From Vermamoeba vermiformis (Eukaryota), in contig JBEWZL010000302.1 of NCBI GenBank assembly GCA_045837725.1, positions 62,001 through 126,000 of the forward strand: a stretch of DNA of 64,000 nt, in the 5' to 3' direction. This document shows positions 1,250 through 63,400 of the stretch, one piece after another. Below the pieces are notes generated by a model. That model did not search any database. It worked only from the letters and a program-made list of their open reading frames with translations, and had not been told where the DNA came from. The position numbers and the translations under genes were made by a program. Position 1 is the first letter of the stretch. Every line of letters starts with the position of its first letter.

Positions 1250-1980
1250 TGCTAAAACTCCAGCGGAGCCTACTTTAGGCACAATAATATGGAATTATAG
1301 TAGTATATATTATATTAGAGTATAGTACAATGTCTTATAATTGAAAATTAATTCAGAAACACAGCCCAGATATTATAAAATAGAATAAATGATTAGATGT
1401 CGCCGATATATTTAATATAAATATAAAATTATTGAATTAAATATTTGGATTATTTATAATCGTCACACCGTTCTCCGTTTCTGCGTTTATGACGTAAGCG
1501 CGTCACAATAAGGGTAAAAAATTGTAAATAGATAAGTTTTTATCTGATCAGTTTGCCGCGATGGCGTTAACTTCGTTGTGATGGCGATTAACTTGCCGTG
1601 ATGGCATCAAACTCATTCAACATATATATTGCCGTGATGGCCACAACCTCACCGTGATGGTGATAACATTGCTGTGATGGCAAAAGACACCCGGTGCACC
1701 TACAGCCGTGATGGCTTTGACTACACTGTGATGGTGTTATCCTGCCGCGATGGCAGTATGATCTCCGTGATGGAGAAAGTGTTCACCGTGATGGTGACTT
1801 CATAGTAAACCCTTGTAATGTAATAATAAAACCAGATCTACTGCTGCAGATCAACACCTCATAAAATACCACTAATATCTTATTGTTATGATATTATGGT
1901 GTATTATAAATTATATTGTACATATTATGATGGATTTGAGCTATATTGGCCAAAATTTAGGCTCCGCTGGAGTTTTAGCA
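1250..1980. mobile_element. Non-autonomous TIR element (MITE-like, ~730 bp) flanked by TA and containing a hairpin array
   Basis: Perfect 23-bp inverted repeats TGCTAAAACTCCAGCGGAGCCTA (1250-1272) and its reverse complement (1958-1980). TA lies on both sides (1248-49, 1981-82). No internal transposase ORF. Confidence 0.7.
1554..1797 (+). repeat. Array of 11 short stem-loops with conserved GYGAT loop
   Basis: Loops start at 1558, 1578, 1598, 1634, 1654, 1674, 1708, 1728, 1747, 1767 and 1788. Stems differ but stay complementary (e.g. tgcc/ggca, tcacc/ggtga, tctcc/ggaga, agcc/ggct, acact/ggtgt). Confidence 0.9.
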
Positions 1981-14580: not shown

Positions 14581-15859
14581 ATGATGCTTCATATTGTGCA
14601 CCGATTGCCAATAACGACGGTTAGCGTAGTGCTGCTTTGCGTGTACAGTCTCGTGTCAATCGTTTTGCAACGGATCAAGCGACATTTTGCGCGAAAAATG
14701 TATGTAATATTATGATATGTTGTATAGATAATATTTAATAGTATGATCACCTAAAACAAGAGAGTTCAAGTCGTAACGAAGTTTACTTAATTTTGAAAGG
14801 TACTTTACAAATCATTATTAACCTTAAATATAGTGTACAGCATTCAATATTGCCTAGAGAATTATTAAACGAAATTTTGAATGAAGTATTGGCGGATTCA
14901 AGCACATCCGTGATTGACTTGACATCCCTGTCACTCGTTTGCCGAGAATGGAATGAAAAAATATCCAAACACGAGATTTGGTTTCATTATATGAATACGA
15001 AGTGGATAAATTTCAAACACAAAGCGCGCGACATCCAGCTCAACAAAATTTTTCGGTCAACGGCAGCAGTATTATCTCCGAAGCTTTCATATGCAGTTCT
15101 GAGATACAGAATGCCATTATACAATTATTATGCAAGTGGATCGGTGCTTCTTGGCGACATGGAATTTTTGGAATTTCCAGCAGATCTGATCCCGCTTCGT
15201 TCAAACAAAAATCTGTGGGTCCCATGGCTCAATCACAATATCACCAAGCGACCAGAGACATTATGGAAGTTTCTATATTCAATAATAAGGCATCCTAAGT
15301 GGATTTATCCGTTACTGGCTTATCGAACCCCGGATGCCACTCACAAACACGACTTGGATCCGCTCGCTGTCACTCAAATCGATAAATTACTATTATATAT
15401 AGCAGTACGTATATTATTACACTATTAATCAGCATTTAATACTTACTCGATCAGATCTTGTTCAATTTCATGCCGTGGCTCGATCACGTGCTTATTGTCA
15501 AATTATCACGTGGCTTCGAACAATTCATGAACGGAAATTCAGCGTGGTACGATTACTTCCAATTATGGAAATATCCGGAGATGTCCACCGTTGCATGCCT
15601 GCAAACATTAACAGCTGCAACATCTTTGCAGGCCTTTGAAAGTTCATTTTTCAACGCGTCATTGATGACTATTCGAGTCGTTATGGTGGCTATTAGTGTG
15701 ACTACGGGCGACATGATGGCACTTTTAATTTTCTTTGTACTTGTCATACTGTCGATTGTAGTCCACGCACAAACCGATACTTTTGCGAAACGGCTCTATT
15801 GGGCCCGAGTGTGGCTAAGTGTTGGTTTATTTCCTGTAATTTGGTGCGCAATTATGTAA
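14581..15859 (+). CDS. Membrane-anchored F-box-like protein with polytopic C-terminus (paralog of 52014-53498)
   Basis: Exon 1 (14581-14699) encodes TM RLPITTVSVVLLCVYSLV. Exon 2 from 14834 encodes ILPRELLNEIL...LSLVCREWNEKI...IW, then WVPWLNHNI. The last exon is hydrophobic. Confidence 0.7.
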
Positions 15860-16689
15860 ATGATGCTCTGTAAAAGGTTACTCGTATAAAAACATTTTAT
15901 TCCCCGCTCCAGGTTTGATTGTTTGGATTAAATTATAAACCTTTTTTTGTATTGGGGCGCCGGCCTGTGGGTTTTTTTATTGGCCTGTTGGGGGGGGGGG
16001 GGGGGGGGGGGGGAAAAAAAAATAGCATTTGTATAATATAATACAAGGCATAAGAAAGAGGTCGAATAGAATTCGCAGCTTAGCGGTTGGAATGGGATCG
16101 AGATCCTCCTTCAACTTTTAATGCGAAATCTTTTCGCTTATTTGGTTGGCAAGAATATATTCGGGAGTATATTATGCCTTTTAGATATTGATATGGAAAT
16201 TTTAGTCCACTGTGTGATTCTAAGCCGAATATCTTCGCCCGCTCGCGATGAACTAATTACAATTTATACCAATGCGAAATCTCACAAGCGGGATGTTGCG
16301 GTCTTTCCTTATCCGCTATCACGAACGAAATCTCGATAATTTTTATCGTATTACACCTCGCATCCAAGTCTTCGATGACATCGAGCGGACCAAATACTTG
16401 CTAGTTGACTTGGCTATGCAGCAACAGGGGCCTTTCTTGACGATTCTCCTTCTTAATTTGCCGAAGATGTTGTACTTGCCGTTCTGTAAGCACTCTGCGA
16501 CGACGATGTAAGTTGTAGTTCATTGTTCCTGTGCTGTTATAAGTCGTTACTTATAGATAATGGTCACTACAGCTTCTTATTTATATTTTCCTATGATATA
16601 CTTCGGTGCTATTTCCCGACGGGCAAAAATAAAATTTTAACCAGTCCGGTTGTACAGACTTTTTACTTCATTTAATCCAATAGAAGACA

Positions 16690-19600
16690 ATGCACCAGTC
16701 TTTACAGTGTTTGGTTATCTTATTAGTGTTGTGTTTTGGCTTATCTTACGGCCAACAACAGCTTTCCGTCTTCGTGGCAGTGGAAGGTGGATCGGATGTG
16801 ACTGGCGATGGAACAATGGGCAGTCCTCTCCAAACAATTACTGCCGCACAAAATTATATTAGAAATAATATAACAAAGTCTGCTTATTCAGGTAAATTTT
16901 AACGAAGATTTTCTAGTTGGGGTTATTCACGCCAATTTGTTGCGTGTTTTGCGATTTTGCGGTTTGTTGGTTTTTGCGATGAAGTTTGTCACAAAATATT
17001 TTTTTTTGTCCTCGCTCGTAATTGACGCATCGACCACAACTGCTTCCTAACAGTCGCAGATTTAATGCGTTATCTTAACGGGTACGCGTGCACCCTTTAA
17101 CGAGGATGCTTGGTCTTTAACGAGATCTTTAAATTTGAGCTTAACCGCTCCGGCTTAATTGCCCTGGCCTAATAGCCTCTCTTAACGGAGAAATCCCATT
17201 AACGTGGGCTTGTCTTAATGGACTATCCTTAACGGGAAAAACCTTTAACGAGGTCTTCAAATGAATCCGGATTAATTTTTAATTGTCAGATTAAATGTTT
17301 TTTCAGTTTTTAAATTATATAAAAACATATATATAATTGTTTGATGACGTGCACGCAAAATTGCGGTTTTTCAACCGCCTCCACTAAAGAAATTTATCAA
17401 TGGGTCTACGATCCAGCAGAATTCAAAGAAAATAAACCACAAAATACGTTTTTGCTAAAATTTTCGCATTTGTGAGATTTTTTTGTGGTTTGCTAGCAAA
17501 ATTGACGTGAATAACCCCAAGTAGCGCGTAGATTCGGTTTAGTTTTTCAGTTTCAATCACATTTTTGAAACTATTACTAGGCACCATGGAAATATATGTT
17601 AACGTAATTGATATGACTAGTACTATTGATGCTAATATTTACTTTTAAAAGATATTTTCGTCGAGATCAGAGCCGGTTTATACTTTATTTCGTCTCCGCT
17701 CGCTTTCACCGCGGATGACTCAGGCACTGTGACTACTCGCATTACATATAGGTAACTATAAAGCGATTTCTTCACGTATGAGCTGCGCACGAATCACAAT
17801 TGAATTAATTTCCGAAATTAGCATTTATTTATCGATATAATCTGAGGTATTAGCCTTTATATAATCTTGACATTAATATACTTGACTTTATAGGGCTTAT
17901 AACGGCGAAGAAGTTCGTTTAATCGGAGGTACAACCATTGGCGGTTGGACATCCGTCACCGAAACTGCAATCCTAAATCGCCTGCACGATTCTGCTAAGG
18001 CGAATGTACGGTAGTACTACATCTATAGAATAGTATTAACTAATTATCCAATTCAGGTTATCGTGGCGTCACTCGGTTCGTTAGATCCTGGAGTTTTGAT
18101 GAGAAGAGGATTTGGCGCTAGCGGAGGGTATGCAGCCATGGAATTATTCTTTAAAACTGAGCCTATGATTATGGCACGATATCCTAATAGCGTAAGTAGT
18201 CTTATTAAAACACTTTTGTCCAAGTTCCGAATCTGATCTCGTTTACATCCAGGATTTTCTCAAATTATCTGCCTTCGATAGCAACACAAATACTGTATCG
18301 TTTGATAGTAAGACTAATAACGTCGCAAATTGGCAATTAGAATCCGATCCTTGGGCTTTTGGCTTCTGGTTTTACGATTGGGCAGATGAGTAAGTGACAT
18401 TTTTGACACTTTGACACGTGTCAAACTTTAATTAACCGGTATAAATGCAGCTTTATCCCGATCAAGCAGATTACAAGTCTCGGAGGCACGAATGTGTCAT
18501 TTGTGGCTAATGCTCAAACGAGTTATGGTTTTGCAGTCAATCAACGATTTTATTTGCAAAACTTTTTGTCCGAACTTGACGCCCCTGGCGAGTACTACAT
18601 TGATCGCAACAACTCGAAGATCTATTTTTGGCCTACTTCTACTGACTACACTCAAAATGACTTCATCATTTCAACCACAAACAACGTTTTGACTTTGACG
18701 AACGTCGCGTACTTCACTTTGCAAGGCCTCACTATTGAAGCTTCAAGAAAAGATGTAATTATTTAACTGCCCAAAAAAATACCAAAATTAATTCTTTCCT
18801 CATTAGGGCATTGTCGGATCCAACCTCCGAAACGTAAGTTCATTACCAACCTGAAAAATTTTCTGAAAATGAATAACGATGGCATCAATAGGTCACTTTT
18901 ACTGACCTTACTGTTCGTAACTTGGGCACGCACGCGATGAACTTGGGGGGTCCCGAGAACATTCTCGTTGAGCGATGCACTGTCAGCGGTCCCGGAAACT
19001 CCGGAATTAGATTGAGCGGAGGAATCCGTGCCAATCTCACTCGATCCAGTAAGTTTCCTTATATGGTAATCAAAGCTTATCTAACGTACAACACAGACCA
19101 CGTGGCTCGTAACAACGTCGTAAAAAATTTCAGTCGTTTTGCGAAAACTTATCAACCTGCTTTTAACGTCGCTGGTGTTGGTATTACTATCGAACATAAT
19201 GAAATGTATAATGGTCCTCATACTGCTTTGCTTTGGAGCGGAAACTATCACACGATGCAGTACAACATTGTTCACGATGTACTTGCCCTACTTTGACCCA
19301 TCTTTTGAACGCTATATTAAATTTAAATATATATGCAGGTATGCACTGAGACAGGAGACGTCGGCGCCTTTTATTCAGGACGTGATTGGACTCTACGTGG
19401 AAACGTCATTAAGCACAATTTGTTCTAGTAAGTCAGATCCGACGTCATCTCAAAAATTAGAAATTTCGTTCTAACGGTCATTTTATTCAGTAATATTATT
19501 GGCCCTGGTAACCTTGGTGCATCTGGCGTATATTTCGACGATCAATATAGCTCTGGTTCGATCTACGGAAATATTTTTTACAACGTCTACCGAGTATGTT

Positions 19601-20315
19601 TGCAACTATTTTTCTCCGTGTGAATATCTCGTTTAATCTCCCATATAGGGAATTCTTCTCGGAGGTGGCAGGGACAGTGAAATTTTCAATAATATCTTTA
19701 TTGGATCTTCCTACGCTATTCACGTCGATGCTCGCGGATACCATGTGTGCGGACCTACCAACAACGACACTCTGATGAACAATCTCAACGCTGTGCCTTA
19801 TCAATCTGACTTATGGCGTAATGCTTTCCCTACTCTATATACTATTCTTGATGTAAGTCAAAAACTCACCTAATTTCAGTGAACAATTTTTTTAATTGTT
19901 TTTTTTTTCTAAGAACGATCCGCAAGCCCCGAACGGAAACCGAATTGGCACAAACATTTTCGTTAATAATACCCGCAATAATTTTTTGTGCGGATCTTTC
20001 AACTACACCGGTCACGTGGAGTTCGTCGAATCGTGCGTCAATTTGACAGCAAGTGACTTTACAAATGTCGCCGGACTTGATTTCCATTTGCAGTCTGATG
20101 TCATTACAGCCAAATGCGGTAGTTCATTTGCATCTGCATTCACTCAGATCCCCTTGGACAATATCGGAGTGGCTCCTCTGCCGTCAGATCCGGCCTCATC
20201 ACCCAACGGCAATCCGAACAATAGCACTCCAAAAACAGTATCTCAAGCCAATAACAACCCCATTGAAAGCGTTGTTTTATTGACGGTTTTGGCAGTGTTA
20301 GCCGTTGCTGCTTAA
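16690..20315 (+). CDS. Secreted/GPI-type right-handed parallel beta-helix protein (pectin-lyase fold, bacterial-like carbohydrate-active candidate)
   Basis: Signal peptide; GSD..GDGT..SPLQTITAAQ, ARYPN, GFWFYDWAD, RFYLQNFLSELDAPGEYYIDR, ETGDVGAFYSGRDWTLRGN, GVYFDDQYS, LLGGGRD; hydrophobic C-terminus; many introns. Confidence 0.8.
16918..17519. mobile_element. Non-autonomous TIR element (~600 bp) in intron 1 of the beta-helix gene, 3-bp TSD AGT
   Basis: Left end TGGGGTTATTCACGCCAATTT and right end AAATTGACGTGAATAACCCCA (1 mismatch). AGT occurs at 16915-17 and 17520-22. Subterminal TTTTGYGGTTT motifs are present. Confidence 0.8.
17071..17254 (+). repeat. Array of 11 short stem-loops with conserved TTAACG-type hexaloop
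   Basis: Loops at 17075, 17097, 17117, 17141, 17155, 17169, 17182, 17199, 17215, 17229 and 17245. Stems: tatc/ggta, cct/agg, ggtct/agatc, gagc/gctc, ggc/gcc, ggc/gcc, tctc/gaga, ccca/tggg, gtc/gac, tcc/gga, acct/aggt. Confidence 0.9.
18412..18423. repeat. Dispersed palindrome TGACACGTGTCA (first of 11 copies)
   Basis: Copies at 18412, 20346, 22566, 24500, 24543, 34120, 44738, 46913, 47070, 61866 and 63184, all non-coding. Confidence 0.9.
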
Positions 20316-20506
20316 GCATTAAAATAAATTGACACTTTGACACTTTGACACGTGTCATTTTCCCGTGACATCTGCATTATCTATGCAAACTACAATAAAA
20401 AACCTACCTATGTTTCCTACGGGCCGTAGAAACGCAAGCCTTGCTAGCTACTTTAAGTTTGACTATGACACGCAGCGATCAGTTTAAAGGCGAAGTATTA
20501 CAAGAC

Positions 20507-34721: not shown

Positions 34722-35420
34722 TTGCTAGCATGCTTTTTGCTTGGTATGAATAAAAATGTTTCTTTTCCAGATCTAGAAATAGAACTTATAACTATTATCA
34801 TTTTCAACGGTACGGCCATTACAAAATAATTTTTATGTCGCTCGTGATCAATTACGAGATTACATTTTAAGCAGCGAACAAATTGACAACACAAATCACG
34901 CTGCATTAAAGTGATTTAAAAATAAGGCACTGAATTTACGTAAACCCTTTTTTGGCTAATGATTATCGAGAATAATTATCAACTATGTGATACGAGAATA
35001 TTATTAGTATAATTACTAAAGCTCTATGTACATCATTATTTAATTTGACACGCAAATTTTTTCTTTTCTATCGCGATAGATCTGGGTTACTTACTACGGC
35101 GACTATGACGATCAAATCTGCTTGTGCTTCATTTTAATTACGAGACGTTTATCATAAGTGATTAGTCCATACTATACATTTCTTAAATCATGCCCCACTC
35201 GCTACAATCACGAACTTTCTGTTTGTAACGGATCAGGTAATACCGCAGTCTGTTTGGCAAGCGTATATGATTGTAACTGTATGGATGACTATAGAGTGAT
35301 TCCAAGCGGAGATTGAAAAACTAATTAATTTGAGTTCGTGGGTCACATTGACATTCGTGACACGAGACATTAATTAAAATTTGTAAGTGGTTTGGGTCAA
35401 TTAATTTTATTATTAGATCA

Positions 35421-36323
35421 ATGCGATTAACACTTATCGTAGTATATTTATTCGCTGCCAGTTGCTTGGCTGCACCGCCAGCGTATTACCCTTTTGGACC
35501 GCAAGCGGATGTACCTGAAACTTCTCTGCTTGGGTGGAGGCGCTGTTGGAACACTAGCTACGCGTCAGAAGATCCTAATACTACTGATATCACCACTATG
35601 TATGGAGCTTGCACGGGCGACTACTTGTTATACGGATGTCGAGAAGACGGCGCTACGAATCTAGCAGTTCTCGCTGCCGGTCAAAGAACAGCCGTATTAA
35701 ATGATACTGGTAATGCAACGGATTACCCAACATCTGTTACGAACAATAACGGAGTGGATTGGTACTTCAACCGATGGAGCTCGATCGGATTCGCTAAAGA
35801 AGGAGATGCGATCCTAAAAGACAGCTGCGACTTCGTTAATGGTACTTATCCCGACTTGAAGCTTTGTTGGCGTGCAGGTAATATATATTCCGATCACATT
35901 CTGTGTACCAATTAATTAACACGTAATTTTACAGGAAATGGCGACAACAAATATTTGTACGGCGGTACTCGTTGTGGATCTGCTACAGGCATTTACGAAG
36001 GCTGGAATCGGGAAATTTGGATGCCGGATCCATGTGGCAACAAGAATGAAGGCGATTATTGCGATAATGGCAGTACTTGCACGATCAACACTTGCCGATC
36101 GGGTGTTTGCGTTAGCGGATCTGCTGTGACGTGCACAGTACCTGAAGGCTGTTTAAGCTCGACATGTAACGCTAAGACTGGTCAATGCGAGGATTTTTGT
36201 CCTGATCCAGAAGCTACTCCAATTGAAAACAAATTGCCGCCGACAACCGAAGTTACATCTAGCGCAGTGCAGATCTGGACATTTCAATTTGTATTTATAC
36301 TTGCTATTGAAGCATTAATCTAA
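35421..36323 (+). CDS. Secreted/GPI-type protein: conserved Cys domain + Cys-rich repeats (paralog of 38214-39420)
   Basis: Signal peptide; YYPFGPQ..GWRRCW..C.GDYLLYGCR..NGVDWYF..SIGFAKEGD..CD..LCW..RCG; CDNGSTCT repeats; hydrophobic tail. Confidence 0.8.
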
Positions 36324-37649: not shown

Positions 37650-37752
37650 CTATTGAATGCACCGTGGCTGCAGACTGCTTGAGCCTGACGTGCAATGCAA
37701 TTACTGGTCAATGCGACAACCAATGCCCACCAATCGCATCACTTGTCAAAGC
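37650..37752 (+). pseudogene. Fragment of the Cys-rich GPI protein gene family
   Basis: CTATTGAATGCACCGTG...ACTGGTCAATGCGACAACCAATGCCCACCAATCGCA closely matches 39221-39325 but lacks upstream exons. Confidence 0.75.
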
Positions 37753-38050
37753 GGACCGTACAAAACGTTCAAGGAAACGCTGGCACCACAACAACAACGC
37801 TGGTGAGTGCAGTTTCGTTACATTGCTGAGAGACGAGATATGTAAGTATAACTACAATGAAGAATAACCGATGCCGCAAAGCTGAATCATGATTAAGTTC
37901 GGATCTCCGACGACAACTTTAGTTTGCGTGTTTTTTTCGATAAAATAATTGTATCCGCTTTTAGCTATGACTTTAATATAAATCGAAGAGGCGGTAAAGA
38001 TTGAAAATTGTTGGTTTTTTATGGAACTGGCATTTTTGATTTTGTTATGT

Positions 38051-38091
<41 letters not shown>

Positions 38092-38213
38092 TTTTTTTTT
38101 TTTTTTTTTTTTTTTATTTTTTCGGGTTTTTTTTGGGGGCCTTTTTTTAAAAAAAAAAAAAAAAATAAATCACAAAAATTGTCGTTAACTAATTCACAAT
38201 TATTTAGATAAAA

Positions 38214-39420
38214 ATGCAAAGACCACAAACGATATTAGTTTTATTAGCGTTAGGTTTTGTGGCTTGCTTGGCTACACAACCGACGTATTACCCGTACGGG
38301 CCACAAACAAACGTACCGGAAACGGATTTGCTTGGTTGGAGACGCTGTTGGAGTAATAGCTACGTAGATACCCCGTATGACTACACTGCCAATATTACAT
38401 CTATTTTTACGGAGTGCTCAGGCGACTACCTGCTTTACGGATGCCGATCAGATGGATCAACGAATCTGGCTCTTCTTGCGGCTGGCCAAAGGAGTGCAGT
38501 ATTGAATAATACTGGATTAACTTCGGAAGATGTTACTAATGATAATGGAGTCGCTTGGTACTTCTACCCAGATACGTCTATTGGATTTGCAAAAGAAGGA
38601 GATCAAATCAATAAGGACGATTGCGATTATATTAACGGAACATTCCCTCAATTAAAACTTTGCTGGCACACTTACGGTAAGTCTGCAGCTGAGTTAAACG
38701 TTTTTTCCAACGGATAACTAGAAAAAAAATGGAATTCTGATATCGCTTAATATACAATAAAATAACAATAATTTAATTATATATATAATAGAATGGACAA
38801 TCTTTTAACGCTTTATTTTTCATTTCGTAACTTTCTGATCGGGATTTAAAAATTTAAAAATGAAATGCCACCTTAACGATCCAATTTTATCAGGAAACGA
38901 TTTGGAGGGATTTATTATTCGCGGATATCGTTGCGGAGCTAGCGTATCTATCGACTCCGGCTGGGGCCGTGAGATCTGGATGCCCGATCCTTGTGGCAAC
39001 ATGGTCGATGGTGCTCAATGCGACGATGGCAACCCATGTACAACAGACACTACGTGCTCTGCAGGTGTATGTGGAGGAGGCTCAGAAGTGACTTGCGATC
39101 AGTGCATGGAGTGCGATCCAAACAGCGGATGTGTTCCCGTACAAAACGGCACGAGTTGTTCCGACGGCAATTTGTGCACTGAAACTGACACCTGTCAAGC
39201 TGGCGAGTGCGTCGGTACGACTATTGAATGCACCGTGCCTGCAGGCTGCTTCAACTCGACGTGCAATGCAAGCACTGGTCAATGCGGCAACCAATGCCCA
39301 CCAATCGCAACACCTGGCAAAACGCCGGTTGCAACACCGACTGCAAAGACTTCTGATGCCGCACAACTCGTCGTATTTAACGTACTTATTCTCGCTGTAG
39401 CAGCGATTATTTTTTATTAA
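38214..39420 (+). CDS. Secreted/GPI-type protein: conserved Cys domain + CDDGNPCT-type repeats
   Basis: Paralog of 35421-36323 with the same intron position. CDDGNPCTTDTTCSAGVC and CSDGNLCTETDTCQAGEC repeats, TP-rich stalk, hydrophobic tail. Confidence 0.85.
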
Positions 39421-43990: not shown

Positions 43991-45913
43991 TTATTTGCTT
44001 AAAGGAGTAAACTTTACACGGATTGAGCCTTGGCAAAAAGGCATTCCAATGGCCCTACAGATATTACTATTAGACATACGCCTTGAATAAGAAACAGCAA
44101 TGCGTTTTGATTTAAAAAATCCAAACCGAATTTCCCAAAAAAGGAAATTATTTAAAGTAAAAATGACTTGTTAAACTTACCGAGAGAAGTCAGGACCAGT
44201 CAACGGCGACAAGGTTTCAACTTTGTAGTTGAGCAAACAGTTCATCCAACCAGCCTTCAACACGACATTGGCAAACTTTTCACCCAAACAGCGATGAGGG
44301 CCGTATCCGAATTGAATATAAGTCTTGTCTTCAATGTGTTTCATTGCAGCACCATTGGCAAATCGATCAGGATTGAATGTGTCTGGCTCTTTGTACACGT
44401 TTGGATCGTGATGGGTCAAGTACGGACTGATCGAGACCATCTCGCCCTTGGGGATTTGAACGCCGCCGAATGTAGTAGGTACCACTGTGCTTCTGGTTAT
44501 AAACAACAAGGCGTAGCTTCTGACAGTCTCTTTCATGACACAATCTAAGAACGACAGGCGCGATAATGTATTGACACTCCATCCTTTTTCATCGACTATT
44601 CATGTTTTTAGTACAAGAAAAATGTCAAGATTGGTTGAGCCAGATCTTGCGTACAATTGTCATATATCACAAAAACGTTCTAAATAATGTCAAAAAAATG
44701 TAATGACCCATTTTGTAGTAGAATTTTGCTTAGATGGTGACACGTGTCAGAGTGTCAAAAGTTCAGCGGGAAGATTTAACGACTCGGTACTTACTCAAGG
44801 CCTTCTCGCACTCATCACGTGCTCGCTTTTGGTACTCGGAGTTGTTTCCGATGTGAGCCAATGACCACGCAAATGTACCAGCTGTGTTGGTGTGAGCGGC
44901 GAACAGGATCCCGACAATATTGCCCGAGAACCACTCGCCAAACTTCTCAGAAGGGAAGCCTTGCTTAAGAGCCATATTGATCATCAATTGAAGGTAGTCA
45001 AAGTTGTTCTCGTACTTGGGCAGATCTGCAAGACGTTTTTTGATCTGTCATGTTAATGGCGTTAGAACAGTTTTGAAAGGTCTGAAAGTTTAAGTATTAA
45101 TGCAATTATACTTACTTCGAGTGTAATAATTTCTATTAAACGTTTACGGGAATTTTTAACGAATCTGACGGCGTTTGAAGGGAACCAAGGAGCAATGAGA
45201 ACATGAGGCTTGAACGCATTCAGTTCAATCTTGTAATAAGACTCGGCCATCTCTTCGCCATATTGGTTATAGCAGTCCTCGCCGACAATGCAGATTGAAG
45301 AGAAATTGGGTTTGAGTTTTAAAAAAATTTTAAAATTCAGGGAATAAATCAAACGATTCTTTTTTAGCAAGATTGGCGAATTGCTTTTCGGTTTCGTTTT
45401 TCACTCGTTCGAGATAACCAGCCAATCTTTCAGCTCGTAAAAATCCTTCTGTAATGTATTCGAGATTATTAGGACCTTGTTTTCTAAAGCCTTCGGAGCC
45501 TAGCGCTAATTTGACGAATCTCTCCGCCGCTAAATTTTGAAATTAAAATCAAAAATTGGAATCGATCCCTAAATCCAGACTTACAGCCCATAGTCATTTC
45601 GGTTTCTTGCGCCTTGAAGAAGTGTTGAATATCTTCATTTCGTAACGACATAGTTAAGCGCAAAAGTGACAGATCTACGGTGAAAACGTTGTCGAGCTTT
45701 CTCGCATCCAACAATAATTCAGCAGGATTCTCTGTTTTAGCATTAAATAAATGTCGAATAATACCAAAAATAAAATATAAACGTACTTGCGAAACGTAGG
45801 GCAGTTGAAATGCCACCAAGGAGCGGAACTCCCGGGATGGGCTTTGGTTTGAGCCAACTAAAAAGCGCAATGGCCAATGCAACGACAACAGTAAGTCCAA
45901 CAATAAGAGACAT
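43991..45913 (-). CDS. Cytochrome P450, CYP51-like with CYP7-type I-helix, copy A (lesion near 45300-45340)
   Basis: TM anchor + PIPG, LFAAHTNTAGTFAWSL, KETVR, FNPDRF, FGYGPHRCLGEKFA. Confidence 0.85.
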
Positions 45914-46284
45914 GTTGTTATATGTTGCTATTTTGGCTAAACAATTGAAAGGCGTGCTTTGGGTGTTATTTATGCCTTGCTAAATCAGGGCGAATTGAAT
46001 CGGAAGTTATTGTTACGATATCCTGATATTATTATGATAATAATATAGACCATAACGACTACTTAAAAAATATTTAGCCTTTTAAGCTGAAAAAGGGTTT
46101 TCGATTATTTGTTTCAAAAGATCTACGACTAAAATTCATATCTGATTCTGAAAGTAATTATTAATTAGGAAATAGGTCGCGTTGAATATTATGCACATAA
46201 TTTCTGCAGTTTGGATTCATGCGCTCTCGCTTACCGCGGTTACGGATCTGCAGAACTTGAAGCCAATTTGAAAAAAATAATCGT

Positions 46285-48318
46285 TTATTGGCTCAAAGGC
46301 GTCAATTTGGCGCGAAGAGAGCCTTGACAGAATGGCATACCAACGGCACTACAAAAAAAAATCTCGTTAATACTTTGCCGGAGTAACCGATAAAATTCCG
46401 AAAATAACCCAAAAAGGAAATAATTTAAAGCAATAACACTTACCGAGAGAAGTCAGGACCAGTCAACGGCGACAACAATTCGACTTTGTAATGGTTCAAA
46501 CAGTTCATCCAACCAGTCTTCAAGACGACATTGGCAAACTTCTCGCCCAAACATCTGTGAGGACCAAACCCGAACTGCATATAAGTCTTGTCTTCAATGT
46601 GTTTCATTGCAGCACCATTGGCGAATCGATCAGGATTGAATGTGTCTGGCTCTTTGTACACGTTTGGATCGTGATGAGTCAAGTACGGACTGATCGCAAC
46701 AATCTCGCCTTCAGGAATAGGCACGCCTCCAAATGTAGTAGGTACCACTGTGCGTCTCGTGATGAATAACAAGGCGTAGCTTCTGACAGTCTCTTTCATC
46801 AAGCAGTCCAAGAACGACAACCGCGCCAACGTATTGACATTCCAGCCTCTCTCGTCATCTGTGAAAAGTCATTAATATCATTGTCTGAGCAACAATAACG
46901 GACTCTTTGAGTTGACACGTGTCACTCATTAAGATGAACTTTCGTGTTTCGTGTGAAAATTGTTGATCGTGTCAAAGTGTCAAAGTGTCACTTAACGTAA
47001 AGGCTTGTTTAGTGGCAATGATAAACCGATGTAATGTTCAATCTTATAGTAGAATTTTGCTTAGAATCGTGACACGTGTCAGAGTGTCAAAATGTCAAAA
47101 TTTCAGCGGGAAGATTTAACGACTCGTTACTTACTCAAGGCCTTCTCGCACTCGTCGCGTGCTCGTTTTTGATACTCGGGATTGTTTCCGATGTGAGCCA
47201 ATGACCACGCAAATGTACCAGCTGTGTTGGTGTGAGCGGCGAACAACAAGGCAACAATGTTCGTTGAAAACCATTGACCGAACTTCTCTGATGGGAATCC
47301 GTCTTTAAGAGCCATATTGATCATCAATTGAAGGTAGTCAAAGTTGTTCTCGTACTTGGGCAGATCCGCAAGACGTTTTTTGACCTGTCAAATATCGATC
47401 GAATTAGCTTCGTTGAAAAGCGATCGAATTTGCAGAATTTAATGAAATTTCATGTACCTCGAGAGTGATAATCTGAAGCAATCTCTTGCGGGCATTGCTG
47501 ACAAATCTAGCGGCGTTTGAAGGGAACCAAGGAGCGATGAGAACATGAGGCTTGAACGCATTCAGTTCAATCTTGTAATAAGACTCGGCCATCTCTTCGC
47601 CATACTGTTCGTAGCACTCTTCACCGACGATGCACAAAAGGTTCGTAAGAACAACAACACGCGAGATCTGATCGACAAAAAAAAAAAGGTTAAAAAAATC
47701 AAGCTTGATTATGATTTGCAAAACGTTCTTACCTCAGGGAATAAATCGAACGATTCTTTTTTGGCAAGATTGGCGAATTGCTTTTCGGTTTCGTGCTTGA
47801 CTCGTTCAAGATAACCAGCCAATCTTTCCGGTCGTAAAAATCCTTCAGTAATATAATGTAAGGCATCGGGACCTTCCTTTCTAAATCCTTCGGAGCCCAA
47901 GGCAGCCTTGACAAATCTTTCGGCAGCTAAAATAATTAATTGGCTATTAGTAAAATATTTAAAATTCAATCCGGATGTACGAACTTACATTTCAAAGTCA
48001 TTTCGCTTTCTTGAGCCTTGAAGAAGTGTTGAATATCTTCATTATTAAATGATACGGTCATGCGCAAAAGAGAAAGATCTACAGTGAATACGTTGCCTAA
48101 TTTTCTTGCATCCAACAAAAGTTTAGCCGGATTTTCTACGTTAATGAAAAATCAATACCCAATAGTCGTCATAATAAAATATTATACTTACTAGCAAATT
48201 GCATAGCAGTAGAAATACCACCAAGTAGCGGCACTCCCGGGATGGGCTTTGGTTTTAACCAAGTGTAAAGCCCAAACGCTAACACCACGACAATAGTCAG
48301 CCCAATTACAAAAGACAT
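46285..48318 (-). CDS. Cytochrome P450, CYP51-like with CYP7-type I-helix, copy B (intact)
   Basis: Tandem paralog of copy A with matching exon structure; LLFAAHTNT, KETVR, FGFGPHRCLGEKFA. Confidence 0.92.
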
Positions 48319-49660
48319 GGTTATGTGGTAGTTATATAATAAAAGAACAAAGAACGGGCGGTCTGCGTTAATTTATACGCCGCTAAATTAGGAAAAACTT
48401 TGACGTAAAAACTCTCGTAACAATAAATCGGATCGGAAGTTATTATTACGAATATCTAATGACAAGATCACGCCTATCCGTAAGAATAGCTACCGATTAA
48501 AAAGGTAACAGGAATATTTTAACAAGTGCTCGTGTTAACCAACAACATCTGCTAGTTAACCGAAAAACTAAAAATAATTATTGCAAAAAAATAGAACTGA
48601 CTAATAATTAAATATAATTAAAATTATAATGGTTCAACCAAGGATGTTGATGATTAAAATTAAATTAATTTGAAATATTTGATCAAGCAGATTTCCATCT
48701 GGTGTTCCGCTTACCGCAATCCTGAACAATGTATCGTGTCCTTCAACAGGCGTCTCAGAGCAGGACTCAATTTAATACCTACTGATTGAGGTACGTGTGT
48801 AGCGAAGAAGTTGGTAAAATAACGCTGCCGATCTCGCCTTTTGGTTTATAAAGTCCTCGTTTCACGATAGCTAGCTATCGCTTTGGATTTTCAACACGAT
48901 AACGGATCATTAGACCAAAGGCACGGTGAACAACTTTCAAAAACTCTTTGAATTGAGTCCATTTTTGGTAATTTACCTTGGCGAGCTTCCCAACGTCTAG
49001 ATCTCATGTTAGAAGTTGCAACAGGCTAATTCCTGGTGATAACTATTCCTGAACGGGAAATTATTCTAATAAGCCATATTTAGCGGATGCACGGTGAACG
49101 ACTAAAGGATCGCGTACATTTACAATAATAACGATAATTTACTAAATATACAAATATAACCTACAATGCTCTGCTAAAACGTGCAAAACCTGTGCATACA
49201 ACAATAGCAATAACTCCTGCTACAACACTTCCACCGCCAACTGCTGTCAAGACCGCGCCGACAACTTTCATGTCCTCTGCAAATCATAATTATATTAGTT
49301 TATTTTTATATTATGTTATTTCATTGTTGGTAGCTTAATATTAGCGACAGTATTATTTTTAAAATTTATTCGTAATTTTTAAATTTGGTCTTGACCTTGG
49401 ATCGGGGTCTGATTCAAACCGACGCCTAAAACAACAGCGCCAGTTATTAGCATAGCTAATCCAATCCATGCCATGCAGCAAAACCCGACCCGTTCGTTGG
49501 TACAATCGTCTCCACTGCAACAACCCATTGAGCCAGATCGAGAGCTTAAAATGCGATGTATTCAATGAAAGTAGTGCAACTGCTATGTGCTGCTAAATAC
49601 AAGAAAATTTTAATTAATGCTATTACTGTCGCAATTCTCATGTGACCACCAAAGGAAATT

Positions 49661-49724: not shown

Positions 49725-49931
49725 CTTAAACAAAGAAAGGTTTAAGTTCAACTATCGGAGAACAATTTTATTTGATTTTTTTGTGGTTTTTTAAAAAAAA
49801 CCGAATAAAAAAAAAAAAAAAATACCGGGAAAAAAAACAAAAAAATATGAGAAAACCAAGCTCAGGCCTCTAGAGTAATATTAATCAACGATATTTACAA
49901 TTATTTAAGTTAAAATCCGAATATGAACATT

Positions 49932-51764
49932 TTACAATGCCGCGAGTGTCACGTGCAAAGATTCGGGTTTGTTCATTTGACCAATTCTCGATTGTTGCTT
50001 AAACTCCGTGACTCCCATAATACGATAATGTTGGATTAATGTCGCTAAGAAAACAGCTTGCTCTAACAACGAAAATTGATTGCCGAGACTAAGAAGTACT
50101 TTATTAGTAAACATTAGTTAAGACGAAGATTTGCACTGCTTACCAAGCACGTGATTTCATTGAAAATGGTACGTAAGAAAATGGCGTGAAAGGTTTGTCG
50201 AATCGATCAGGGTTGAACTCTTCGGGGTTTTCCCAAAACTCCGGTGAGTGATGCAGCGCGTAAATGCCAACACCCATCATGCACTAACGGCAAGTATTAA
50301 CTACTATTACTATATTAGGAAAGTTTGACGTACGCCTTTGGGCACAATTTGGCCTTCAAACTCGGTGTCTTCAGCGACAGTTCGAGTCGTCAAATTTGTG
50401 ACTGGCGGTTGCATTCTCATGTTTTCTTTGATCGTATTATTCAAATAACGCAACTATACGAGTCATTATGTAAGTAAATATAATAGTAAAGTATCGTTAT
50501 TGTACCTCTTTGATATTTTCTTTGCTGACAGGTTGACCCTTCAGTACCGTGCTAACTTCGTCGATCAAGCGCTGTTGTACGGATTGATTCATGGCCAAAT
50601 GATAGAACATCCATGAGAGGGCGGAGGCTGTAGTCTCGTGGCCAGCAGTGAACAAAAGGAACGTAATTGCAACGACCTGTCAAAAGTGTCAAAACTGCAT
50701 GTCAACCGAGATTTTTTTGTCCTAAAAACAGTCCTACCTCGTCTTCAGTCCAAGTAGGATCGTGAGCACTTAACATAGCATCAACAATGTCAAACTTCGA
50801 TGGCGATGGATTTCCTTTTTTGCCCTAGTCACGTGTTGGTAAAACGGATTTGCATCATCGATCAACTTACATTTACAAGGCTTCTCATTCCCTCACTCAG
50901 CTCAATCATTCTCTTGTTCAGTTCGATAGGTAAGGCTCGGCCGATTACTCCTTCAATCTGCAAATTTCCTAATTAGGTAATTGCGAAAAAATTTCTCTTG
51001 AGAACTTACCAAGCCAACGATGAAAGTGGAAGGCTGTACTAAGTTGTTTAACATATAAGACAGATTCTCTAAGTCACGATCTTCTTTGCCTTTCATTGCA
51101 TCAAACGATTTGCTCATGACTGTCTTGCCAAGCACATCCACCGTAAAAAGAGGCATCCACCGGGTAATATCTATTGGCTTATCGATCATAGGACGCCATA
51201 TATCCATTAATTCGAGTGATGTTGAGTAGAATTCAGGCAACCATTCTTTCACTGCATCGAAATGGAATGGCGGACTCAACACATTTCGAAATCGCCTGTT
51301 TTAAAAATTCGAAAAATTAATTATTGATTAATCTTCGCTTTAATACAATCTATGTTACCTCCAATCCTCGCCATTGCTATTTAAAATATTATTTGAAATT
51401 AATTTCGGCATATTTTTCAAATTGATTGGCGGGGTCGTTTTTGGGAACAGTTCTGGATTCGATAATACCCACTATAATTACGTCATTTAATTACAATAAT
51501 TTTATAATGAGATATGATATTGAAACTAACCTTAGCGCTGTCCGGATGCGTCGCTAAAACGGCAGTAAATCCAGGCCCATTCATTTTGAACAGTTTTGGT
51601 CGCTTGACCGCCCAACGAGTGAAAAGATTTCGCTGAAAATTAAGTGGATCCTTAACAAAATCAAATAGAGATAGTCCTTCGATGTGTTTGACTTTGTTCG
51701 AGGCAGATCTGATCTTCCAACCAACAAATGATATTATTGCGACAACTAATACTGCAATTATCAT
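49932..51764 (-). CDS. Cytochrome P450 of a different family (CYP3/CYP4-like clan)
   Basis: TM anchor, NGEDWRRFR, FTAGHETTASALSW, KENMR, FNPDRF, PFSMKSRACLGNQFS. Confidence 0.92.
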
Positions 51765-60481: not shown

Positions 60482-63400
60482 ATGGCGTCACCACAACGGC
60501 TCTTACTGCCAGACACTATCAAGCCATATCATTATGATATTCATTGGCATCCATGCTTAGATACTCTCACTTTCAAAGGCTCTGTAGATATTTCAATTCG
60601 GATCGTAAAAACAGTGGATGCGGTTGTCTTACATTGCGACGAATTGGATATTGATAACGTCAAATTAATTATTGGCAATGAAGTACTTGTTCCTATTGAG
60701 CAGATATTGAAAGAAGAGGATGAGACGTTGAACTTAAAATTCGATCGTCTACTAGCACTTGGAGAGGCGAAATTGCATATTGAATTTCATGCGCCATTAT
60801 CCACTAAATTATATGGATTTTATAAATCAAAAATAGTCGATAAGCAAGGCAAGGAAAGGTAATTATAATTTTTGTATAATTTTCTAATTGCATATTACGG
60901 ACTTAGACCTCTATAGTGACTTAATTATGGTTATAAAACATTATTAAATAACACAAAATTAATTAATTATTTTTTTCCAGCTGGATGGCGGTGACGCAGT
61001 TCGAGGCGATTGGTAATCCCTTGCTAATTGCTAAATTTTATTCTAAATATTTTTTATATTATTACAGATGCCAGAAGAGCATTTCCATGTTGGGACGAAC
61101 CAGCGCTAAAGGCAACTTTTCGGGTTAAACTTACCATCGCAAAAGATCTGGATGTAAGATCCAACCAGCGATAATTTTCATTGCTAAAAATATGATTTTA
61201 GGGACTGAATAATATGCCCGTAGTAAAAGAAGACGTCCATGGCGACAAAAAGACGCTTGAATTTGATACAACGCCAATTATGTCGACTTATTTAGTAGCA
61301 GCTGCTGTCGGCCGTTTTGAATTCATTGAAACAAAATCAAAACGCGTAAGATAGCTTAAATTTCCTTTTTTGGAATCTTATGATAATTTTAGGGCATCAC
61401 TGTGCGAGTTTATGTTCCGCCAGGAAATATTGACCGAAGCAAATTTTCGCTGGATGTGGCAGGTAAAATTTTAATATAACTCTATAATATTACAATATGA
61501 TTCATATTAATATCGAAATTATACTTGCAGTGAAAGTGCTTGATTATTACGAAGAGTATTTTTCGATCAATTATCCGTTGCCAAAGCTCGATTTGATCTT
61601 AGTGCCCGACTTTGCCTATACCGCTATGGAGTACGATTCAATAATATATTATAAGTAGGTCCCGTCTAATATATAATTATAGGAACTGGGGTCTCATTAC
61701 GTTTGAAGAGTACGTGCTGTTGTGCGATGAAAACTCGGGTGTCAACGCCAAATTGAGCGTCGCTTACATTGTTGCCCATGAAAGTAAGCCTCATTACGAT
61801 TATTATACATACATTAAATTACATATATTAAGCTATTGTGGCACTTTTTTGCCGTAACCAATCGATGACACGTGTCATCATAATTGACACTTTATTTTTT
61901 CATTTAATTATTAATAATTTAACTCCATTTCCAAGAATTAATATATTAATAATATGATGCCTTTGATATCCGTTGTATTACTTATATTGTTAGTGTTAGA
62001 AAAGTGTTGACATTTTGTTTTCGTAGTTGCACATCAATGGTTTGGCAATCTTGTGACAATGGAGTGGTGGCGCGAGTTGTGGCTCAACGAAGGATTTGCG
62101 ACGTACATGGGCCATCAAGTCATTCACGATTTGTTTCCGAATTGGAACGTGTGGGGTCACTTTTCAACCAAGTACTACGTCAAGTAAGATATCTAATCTC
62201 ATTATAATATATAATTTTGTGTACTAATGTAGTTATTATTATAGTGCGTTGCAACTGGATTCGTTGACTTCGTCACATCCGGTTGAAGTTGAGATCCAAA
62301 ATTCCGCCGAGATTAGCGAGATCTTTGACGATATTTCTTATAGCAAAGGTACTACTATAATACTATACTTATTAGATAAGTCTTTATCTAACGATTTTTT
62401 GCAGGTGCTGCCGTGATCCAGATGTTAGTTGCGTTCATCGGTGAAGAAGCATTTAGAAAGGGCCTGAACATTTATTTGAACCGATTTCAATATAGCAATG
62501 CTAAAACAAATGATCTGTGGCAAGCATTGACTGAAGCGAGCGGTCAAAATGTTGCTAAAGTTATGAACAATTGGATTATGGAGACTGGTTATCCGTACAT
62601 TAAAATCACTAAAGATCAACAAGGTAAATTTATGCAAAGATTAGTTATGAATATTCGATACTAATAGGGAAATTATGTATAGGAGGTTATGTTGTTGAAC
62701 AGAATCGATATTTGCGAGTTGCGGATCCAAAAGCGAGCAACCCGATCTGGTCGTTTAATGTTAGCATTGATGATTTTAACGGTCATAAACACCTCGTTGA
62801 AATTACAGGTAAAATTTCTTAGAAAAATTACGTAATTATGTAATTTTTGCTAATTGAATGGTTTTTCAGAAAGAAAAACTGGCTTGCAAAATACAAAGTG
62901 CAAGTGTTTCAAATGCAATATGCGCCAAACAGGATTTTATCGCGTATTATACCCACTTGAATTCTACGAACAATTTGCAGAAGAAATTAAGCAAAACAAA
63001 GTCGAAGAACTTGATCGATTTGGGCTGCAAAGCGACGCATTTGCACTTGCAAAAGCAAATTTGCTGCCGTTCAGTACTGTTTTGGAATTAGTTCGCGCCT
63101 ACGAAAATGAAAAATCTTACCATATTTGGCAAGATTTAATTGCCGAGTTGAGCGCTCTGAGTACGGTAAGAAAAAAAATTATTTGACACGTGTCACTTTT
63201 TTAAAGCCACTAACGCGTTTTGTAGCTTTGGAATGGACAACCAACATACGATTTATATAAGAAATACGTATTAGAGCTCTTACAGCCTTCAATTAAGAGA
63301 TTGGGTCTCACACAGAAATCAACGGATTCAGATCTCGACAAACTTTTGCGTAACTTGCTCTTTTCTGCAGCGGTGAGGGCTTACATTTTCAATAATACCT

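Follow-up and report, generated by a model that had tools for sequence, protein, structure and literature searches.

This analysis concerns an array of small hairpins in the DNA of Vermamoeba vermiformis (NCBI GenBank assembly GCA_045837725.1, contig JBEWZL010000302.1, positions 62,001 to 126,000 of the forward strand). The whole stretch of 64,000 nucleotides (nt) is called the window, and all positions given here are counted from its first letter. The array, called array 2, is the core of a small non-coding element, element 2, which lies in an intron of a plus-strand gene encoding a secreted beta-helix/GH141-like protein; the Beta_helix and GH141_M matches of this host gene fall on its downstream exons. 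A second array of the same design, array 1, is carried by another element of the window, element 1. An earlier note, made from the letters alone, had drawn attention to array 2, and its claims are taken up below together with the results that bear on them. The features at the locus are as follows.

16892..17651, plus strand: host intron (GT..AG), with a spliced joint in read run X4; 155 nt long without element 2
16916..17521, no strand assigned: element 2, about 606 base pairs (bp), non-coding, with inverted-repeat ends and TA flanks (16914-15 and 17522-23); ends uncertain by a few bases
16919..17523, no strand assigned: presence/absence polymorphism of 605 missing bases; joint 16918->17524 in read run X1, one contig, depth 150.6
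16947..16978, plus strand: three subterminal direct copies of TTTTGCG, with one inverted copy at 17354-17360
17071..17254, plus strand: hairpin array 2, 11 stem-loops with the loop [T/C]TAA[C/T]N, stems of 3-5 bp (10 different) and spacers of variable length

Array 2 and its element

The loop of array 2 is TTAACG in seven of the eleven hairpins, and TTAACC, TTAATT, CTAATA and TTAATG occur once each, with complementary bases standing directly on both sides. The loops start at 17075, 17097, 17117, 17141, 17155, 17169, 17182, 17199, 17215, 17229 and 17245, which gives loop-to-loop distances of 22, 20, 24, 14, 14, 13, 17, 16, 14 and 16 nt. With G-T pairs allowed, the stems measure 4, 3, 5, 4, 3, 3, 4, 4, 3, 3 and 4 bp, so that all eleven reach at least 3 bp; ten of the eleven do so with Watson-Crick pairs only. 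Ten of the eleven stems are distinct in sequence, GGC/GCC being present twice. The earlier note had described eleven hairpins at 17071-17254 with these loops, a loop spacing of 13-24 nt, and stems of 3-5 bp that are nearly all different yet complementary. Its positions and loop sequences were correct to the coordinate, and the measured distances and stem counts agree with the rest of the description.

The note had also proposed a permutation check on the pairing around TTAACG, and the outcome was above chance. When the loops were fixed in place and all remaining bases of the array were permuted in 20000 rounds, a mean of 0.62 loops carried a stem of at least 3 bp; the count never went beyond five in any shuffle, and eleven was reached in none. 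Shifting the 3' partner by 1-3 bases in either direction left 0-1 of the 11 stems, and a flanking stem of at least 3 bp was present at 1 of the 27 other plus-strand TTAACG sites in the window. The observation of array 2 is real and not an artefact.

For the estimation of covariation, the eleven units were set in an alignment (A1) of 5 + 6 + 5 columns, and pairs were counted per cell. Standard pairs filled 78.2% of the cells, compared with 42.8% in shuffled arrays (0 of 500 shuffles equal) and 27-49% with slid partners, and the cells altered on both sides numbered 22 against 7.3 in the shuffles (again 0 of 500 equal). The three loop-proximal pairs were paired in 33 of 33 cells, the pair types being CG/UA/AU, CG/GC/UA/UG and CG/GC/AU/UA. 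As each of these three positions holds three or four pair types, several separate double changes are needed to account for them. The two outer positions were paired in 10 of 22 cells, which is approximately the chance level, indicating that the helix is short and sharply bounded. Within these bounds, the helix of array 2 is free in sequence as long as the pairing holds.

Simple tandem duplication, which the earlier note had thought a poor explanation of the array, is indeed inadequate, since the covariation among the units is far above both controls and Tandem Repeats Finder, run at its lowest threshold (minimum score 30), returned zero rows overlapping 17071-17254. The columns of the aligned units average 63% identity, which is owed to the loop, and the units do not resemble a head-to-tail minisatellite.

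The minimum-free-energy fold of the plus strand as RNA at 17060-17265 drew all 11 local hairpins, with -55.6 kcal/mol and z = -2.36, and in this fold a U·G pair closes most of the TTAACG loops, leaving UAAC tetraloops. Single hairpins of array 2 reach -1.0 to -5.1 kcal/mol as RNA and are marginal as DNA, at 0 to -2.5 kcal/mol, with 2 of the 11 not folding. The 5' arms are rich in pyrimidines in both arrays (24/33 and 23/33 bases), and such a pyrimidine/purine asymmetry between arms is meaningless for duplex DNA. The G-T wobbles that the earlier note had read as a marker of the plus strand do not serve this purpose in array 2, because the stems sum as long or longer when A-C is tolerated, as in the opposite-strand view (45 bp), than with G-T allowed (40 bp); there are two G-T wobbles only, in hairpins 1 and 3. 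Searches against Rfam gave 0 matches at E <=1 in 15000-20000 and 1000-2300, and 0 at the gathering score across the whole window.

Element 2 is bounded by two arms of 26 nt (16913-16938 and 17499-17524) that are 92% complementary, and the array therefore lies within a terminal-inverted-repeat element, as the earlier note had placed it. The 13-nt end motif GGGGTTATTCACG is found free of mismatches only at the two ends of element 2. TTTTGCG is not enriched across the whole window, with 27 matches against 19.9 expected. No open reading frame (ORF) of at least 110 amino acids occurs in element 1 or element 2, and a scan of 33 ORFs of the window against Pfam revealed no transposase or HUH-type gene.

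Concerning mobility, four read runs (X1, X4, X21 and X23) were compared with 16600-17800 at 80% likeness. X1, a DNA run of the same organism, contains a 739-nt contig that equals 16885-17623 exactly, at a depth of 273.6 that is similar to the flanks, together with the allele from which element 2 is missing. This element-free allele also differs nearby, with one base left out at 17551, A in place of G at 17567, and AA behind 17593. The existence of an allele without element 2, with a gap bounded by inverted repeats, indicates that the element is or was mobile. At the joint 16918->17524, only one base is compatible with both sides, and a clean target-site duplication was not seen. If TA is taken as the flanking target, the element-free allele would retain three bases of the left end and lack one TA, which suggests an excision footprint rather than a virgin site. 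Further, a 1783-nt contig of X4 shares the right end of element 2 up to 17520 and then continues into unlike sequence, so that at least one further insertion site must exist.

Terminal inverted repeats, a small size without coding capacity, and mobility are among the features of miniature transposable elements with inverted repeats (MITEs) or other non-autonomous cut-and-paste elements, and these three are found in element 2. Two other classes were considered and rejected. An introner would coincide with its intron, whereas the intron here spans 16892-17651, the element spans 16916-17521, and the element-free allele keeps an intron of 155 nt. The DINE-1/Helentron layout does not fit because both repeats lie 0-6 bases from the boundaries of the polymorphism and the right arm is not followed by a hairpin.

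The position of the array in a plus-strand intron, likewise claimed in the earlier note, was established by the spliced joint 16889->17650 in two contigs of X4 (depth 4.7); the GT..AG reading moves the cut two places further right. The intron sequence outside element 2 amounts to 24 and 130 nt, and since an allele without element 2 exists, the array is dispensable for the host gene. In X4, a run with another organism label, the exons are covered and the depth is zero over the unique intron flanks (bins 17543-17624). The spliced joint, the covered exons and the empty intron flanks together amount to RNA-like behaviour of this run. The array copy in X4 has a depth of 5.6, near that of the spliced form, and a further X4 contig of 175 nt is identical to 17280-17454. 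The RNA runs X21 and X23, which carry the same species label as the window, yielded three poor partial reads each and are uninformative on expression. Joints of the type 16878->17650, found in both X1 and X4, come from paralogues that have diverged from the host gene by 18-20 differences per 106 nt and in which the two exons are joined without the intron described here; in the X4 paralogue, 11 other letters stand between the two sides.

The array copy in X4 is a 190-nt contig that covers 17090-17252 with three substitutions and four indel events and departs from the window on both sides. The 163 positions covered comprise 70 of stem, 60 of loop and 33 of spacer. Five of the seven differences fall in spacers, one in the loop of hairpin 4, and one is a shortened C run that leaves its stem intact; the probability of at least five of seven in spacers is 0.005, and that of none of seven in stems is 0.02. 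When the differences were applied by script, the nine fully covered hairpins kept or lengthened their stems, two of the indels extending a stem from 3 to 4 bp and from 4 to 5 bp, respectively. The check on homologous copies suggested by the earlier note could thus be made on this one copy, in which pairing is kept and all fully covered stems are intact.

A second array of the same design

The second array and its element occupy the following positions.

1250..1980, no strand assigned: element 1, about 731 bp, with inverted-repeat ends, TA flanks (1248-49 and 1981-82) and array 1 in its centre
1554..1797, plus strand: hairpin array 1, 11 stem-loops with the loop G[T/C]GAT, stems of 3-5 bp (10 distinct) and a period of mostly 20 nt

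Element 1 is unrelated to element 2 and lies between two divergently oriented genes; its array is the first one implied by the earlier note, which had called array 2 the second. Its arms (1247-1286 and 1944-1983) measure 40 nt and are 85% complementary, and its only ORFs, of 54-64 amino acids, run through an inverted-repeat arm or through the array. The loop of array 1 is GTGAT, replaced by GCGAT in two of the eleven units. Paired cells account for 92%, compared with 75.4% in shuffled arrays (0 of 500 equal). There are five T·G wobbles, all with T in the 5' arm, which pair only on the plus strand; the stems sum to 50 bp with T·G allowed and to 34 bp with A·C allowed, indicating a single-stranded structure of the plus strand. 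Tandem Repeats Finder detects part of array 1 (period 20, 2.7 copies, 77% matches), and array 1 thus resembles a minisatellite in part. About 55 nt upstream of array 1 stands the palindrome TGACGTAAGCGCGTCA.

A scan of the window for at least four identical loops on stems within 300 nt returned arrays 1 and 2 only, besides low-complexity matches, and the density of plain hairpins in the window is not above that of shuffles (a maximum of 7 compared with 4-7). In both arrays the loop is conserved, the helix is minimal and free in sequence, and the spacers vary; both also show an asymmetry between strands and stand in the centre of a mobile element. These five shared features look like the result of selection for a loop displayed on a hairpin and repeated about eleven times. 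With their arrays, the two elements are regarded as a variant of inverted-repeat elements bearing tandem repeats, and two families of this variant lie within one window of 64 kb.

Readings of the arrays

The structural half of our reading, namely that the array is real, constrained and carried by a mobile element, is very probably correct. For its function we favour a reading that we hold tentatively and with somewhat less than even confidence, in which the array is a minisatellite of stem-loops under structural constraint; it would work in single-stranded form, probably as RNA, and offer a multivalent platform to a binder specific for the loop. The array forms the core of a small, non-coding and recently mobile DNA element with inverted ends, and each of its units presents the loop of its family (YTAAYN in array 2, GYGAT in array 1) on a minimal helix of 3-5 bp, the sequence of which may drift freely provided that pairing survives. 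The units are proposed to act single-stranded, most likely as RNA transcribed through the element, and jointly they could capture, as a multivalent platform or sponge, a protein that recognises the loop on its hairpin. RNA is favoured because the hairpins fold stably as RNA but only marginally as DNA, because array 1 tolerates only G·U-type wobbles, and because an array copy sits in the RNA-like run X4. We infer that the pairing is maintained by selection and not by some mutational process, and likewise that RNA is the active form and that it is bound by a protein.

Several points weigh against this proposal. The opposite strand of array 2 folds equally well (z = -2.40), and the array has no strand preference by its stem sums (40 on the plus and 45 on the minus strand). 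The status of X4 as RNA comes from a software guess and from inference; the array copy in this run departs from the window after 17252, where hairpin 11 is reduced to 2 bp, and the homology test consists of this one copy, read from a table of differences. The units of array 2 are paralogues whose cells are not independent, and the number of separate events is lower than the cell counts suggest. In X1 the depth of element 2 resembles that of its flanks, the element is single-copy at the word level, and the array is covered by no second contig of at least 80% likeness; a large family under selection is therefore not demonstrated. Moreover, an element without genes has no obvious need for an RNA function, and no known RNA-binding protein has been matched with the loop motifs.

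The central place of the arrays in two unrelated mobile elements would also suit hairpins that work in single-stranded DNA while the element moves or is copied, either as structure-specific sites for a transposase or an accessory protein, or as pause or priming sites in gap repair. Prokaryotic hairpin repeats are mobilised as single strands, the strand-specific wobbles of array 1 fit single-stranded DNA as well as RNA, and the polymorphic site, with its one base compatible with both sides, is without a clean target-site duplication. However, array 2 is barely stable as DNA (0 to -2.5 kcal/mol, 2 of 11 unfolded), and ordinary inverted ends with TA on both sides are suited to double-strand cut-and-paste. 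The 33 scanned ORFs of the window include no transposase or HUH-type gene, and the DINE-1/Helentron layout is absent. We regard a role in single-stranded DNA as unlikely.

All 11 motifs of array 2 point in the same direction, as do the binding sites in subterminal arrays of many DNA transposons, and TAACGG or TAACCG in 4 of the 11 units fits the Myb core YAACNG. The array might on these grounds be a row of duplex-DNA sites bound by a transcription factor or a transposase, for instance one of the Myb type, beside which the flanking complementarity would be incidental. Yet such sites give no reason for covarying flanks, and the proximal positions, each with 3-4 pair types, hold their pairing in 33 of 33 cells; array 1 repeats the design with another motif, and the arm asymmetry and the wobble bias indicate a single strand. 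This explanation is accordingly judged improbable.

According to one proposal, template switching during replication produces hairpins together with seemingly compensatory changes in a single step (PMC8794818, in its accessible part). A tandem repeat evolving neutrally, in which such switches make and repair small palindromes without selection, could thereby arrive at compensated hairpins, and array 1 is visibly a 20-nt tandem repeat. Nevertheless, the stems extend for only 3-5 bp and then fall sharply to chance pairing (10 of 22 cells), conserved loops alternate with spacers that differ in both sequence and length, and the differences between the two copies of array 2 concentrate in the spacers. 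The same process would also be required around two different motifs in unrelated arrays, and we give a neutral origin of the pairing only a small chance.

Lastly, a splicing module whose loops expose the branch-point-like YTAAY, making the element tolerable in genes or titrating branch-point factors, is very doubtful: YTAAY fits 11 of 11 loops of array 2, yet it is a motif of low information matched post hoc, and hence a weak lead. TTAAC, TTAAT, CTAAT, CTGAT or ATAAC stands 10-25 nt before AG in the eight introns read by eye, a T run followed by CAG lies downstream of array 2 at 17296-17306, and introner-type transposons, according to the accessible part of the literature, offer a precedent for DNA elements that can be selected for RNA splicing signals. 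On the other hand, GTGAT of array 1 fits 4 of 5 positions and element 1 is intergenic; element 2 is not itself an intron, being flanked by 24 + 130 nt of intron sequence in a gene whose element-free allele keeps a 155-nt intron, and no alternative joint using the element occurred among the read contigs.

Returning to the multivalent platform, it is possible, if rather doubtful, that the arrays define an undescribed class of mobile elements in this organism whose conserved cargo is no gene but a covarying stem-loop array with a family-specific loop, serving as a scaffold or sponge of RNA or single-stranded DNA. If so, selection acting on the lineage of the element would maintain the arrays, and those scattered into introns and promoters could rewire interactions between RNA and proteins of the host. 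Non-autonomous DNA transposons are usually thought to need their ends only, whereas here the internal array is the best-kept part in two unrelated elements, and the property preserved is the shape rather than the spelling. Should selection be responsible, small eukaryotic transposons would carry functional structured nucleic-acid modules and spread them into genes, as a natural parallel to both engineered hairpin arrays and the sponge RNAs of bacteria. Because one array provides eleven replicates of the same loop, it allows a clean test of selection against template switching.

Related systems, searches and other features of the window

MITEs with central tandem repeats are known from the bivalve Donax trunculus (DTC84, PMC3879986), and a minisatellite-bearing MITE has been described in Porphyromonas gingivalis (PMC4596501). 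These resemble the present elements in being small and non-coding, with inverted ends and short central tandem units. They differ in that their repeats are satellite-like monomers or plain minisatellites, and the accessible parts of these accounts do not report a conserved loop on covarying stems. DINE-1 of Drosophila likewise has inverted repeats near its ends, variable central repeats and no ORF, and the stem of its stem-loop varies between species, which its authors read as compensatory change (PMC2374699, accessible part). According to the same source, DINE-1 has one hairpin of 7-11 bp just downstream of the subterminal 3' repeat and inserts between two T residues. Element 2 departs from this description, having both repeats terminal, TA flanks, and 11 central hairpins of 3-5 bp.

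Among RNAs, CsrB and RsmZ are bacterial small-RNA sponges that bind CsrA/RsmE through GGA loops and are not mobile elements. They share with the arrays the hairpins in a row, the single loop motif on differing stems and the multivalent capture, a functional analogy by which no homology is implied; GGA loops are absent here, the loops being YTAAYN and GYGAT, and the host is a eukaryote with spliced genes. The A-repeat of Xist consists of small hairpins between spacers, with stems conserved in sequence, and the motifs of the fission yeast meiRNA do not stand on hairpins. Both are eukaryotic non-coding RNAs that repeat a short motif to recruit or sequester a protein, although neither lies within a mobile inverted-repeat element. 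REP/BIME sequences are mobile non-coding hairpin DNA in which pairing is kept while stems change; unlike the arrays, they are prokaryotic, with longer stems and no loop motif common to the units, and are thought to be mobilised as single strands by HUH enzymes. The literature searched, with most subscription journals outside its coverage, held no account of the present design in a eukaryotic mobile element, which is not proof of novelty.

Sequence collections were also searched. A metagenome scan in which only four loops and their spacing were constrained gave three loci, all unrelated to array 2. Two of these (L001 and L002) are subtelomeric tandem repeats of the GGTTAACGG type beside telomere-like CCCTAAA/TTTAGGG repeats of an unrelated eukaryote, and they matched solely through TTAACG at a similar spacing; the third (L003) is a bacterial intergenic repeat. 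Neither the four-loop array pattern nor the end pattern of element 2 had any match in prokaryote genomes or in viral contigs, and the end pattern of element 1 had 0 matches in viral contigs. The two-unit pattern of array 1 matched 104 viral loci; of the 80 that were listed, almost every one is a single match, with spacings in multiples of three. The one multi-match viral contig examined (L030/L069) proved to be a perfect 23-nt tandem repeat and was set aside.

Some further likenesses were dropped. The box C motif RUGAUGA, considered for GTGATGG, and the resemblance to the Myb core YAACNG were put aside as untestable or ill-fitting, and kissing loops formed through the palindromic UUAA were abandoned together with them, UUAA being absent from array 1. 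Core sites of recombinases have conserved arms and a varying spacer, the opposite of the arrays described here. Footprints of hairpin opening in hAT-type excision were discarded since there is no loop in such footprints.

Several other repeats and gene families were observed in the window. The octamer GTGTCAAA/TTGACAC, in short runs, and the palindrome TTGACACGTGTCA are met repeatedly in several introns and in regions flanking genes (18402-18417, 20329-20351, 46969-46990 and 47077-47105; also 44734-44765, 46912-46952 and 63183-63223), and they may serve as a regulatory motif or be left over from another family of repeats. Cytochrome P450 genes on the minus strand lie on a tandem duplication of about 2.3 kb (44175-45914 and 46438-48319), the copies of which are 74-89% identical, and a third P450 fragment is found at 50953-51300. 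A gene for a secreted cysteine-rich protein, for which Pfam gave no match, is present in three neighbouring copies (35361-36323, 37650-37753 and 38208-39420). For an exon of 466 amino acids, the best protein relative is a single unnamed protein with 58% identity. A T run of about 70 nt (94% pure) at 38053-38122 has an A-rich partner about 11.6 kb away, at 49772-49855, and a perfect run of 24 G residues occupies 15990-16013.

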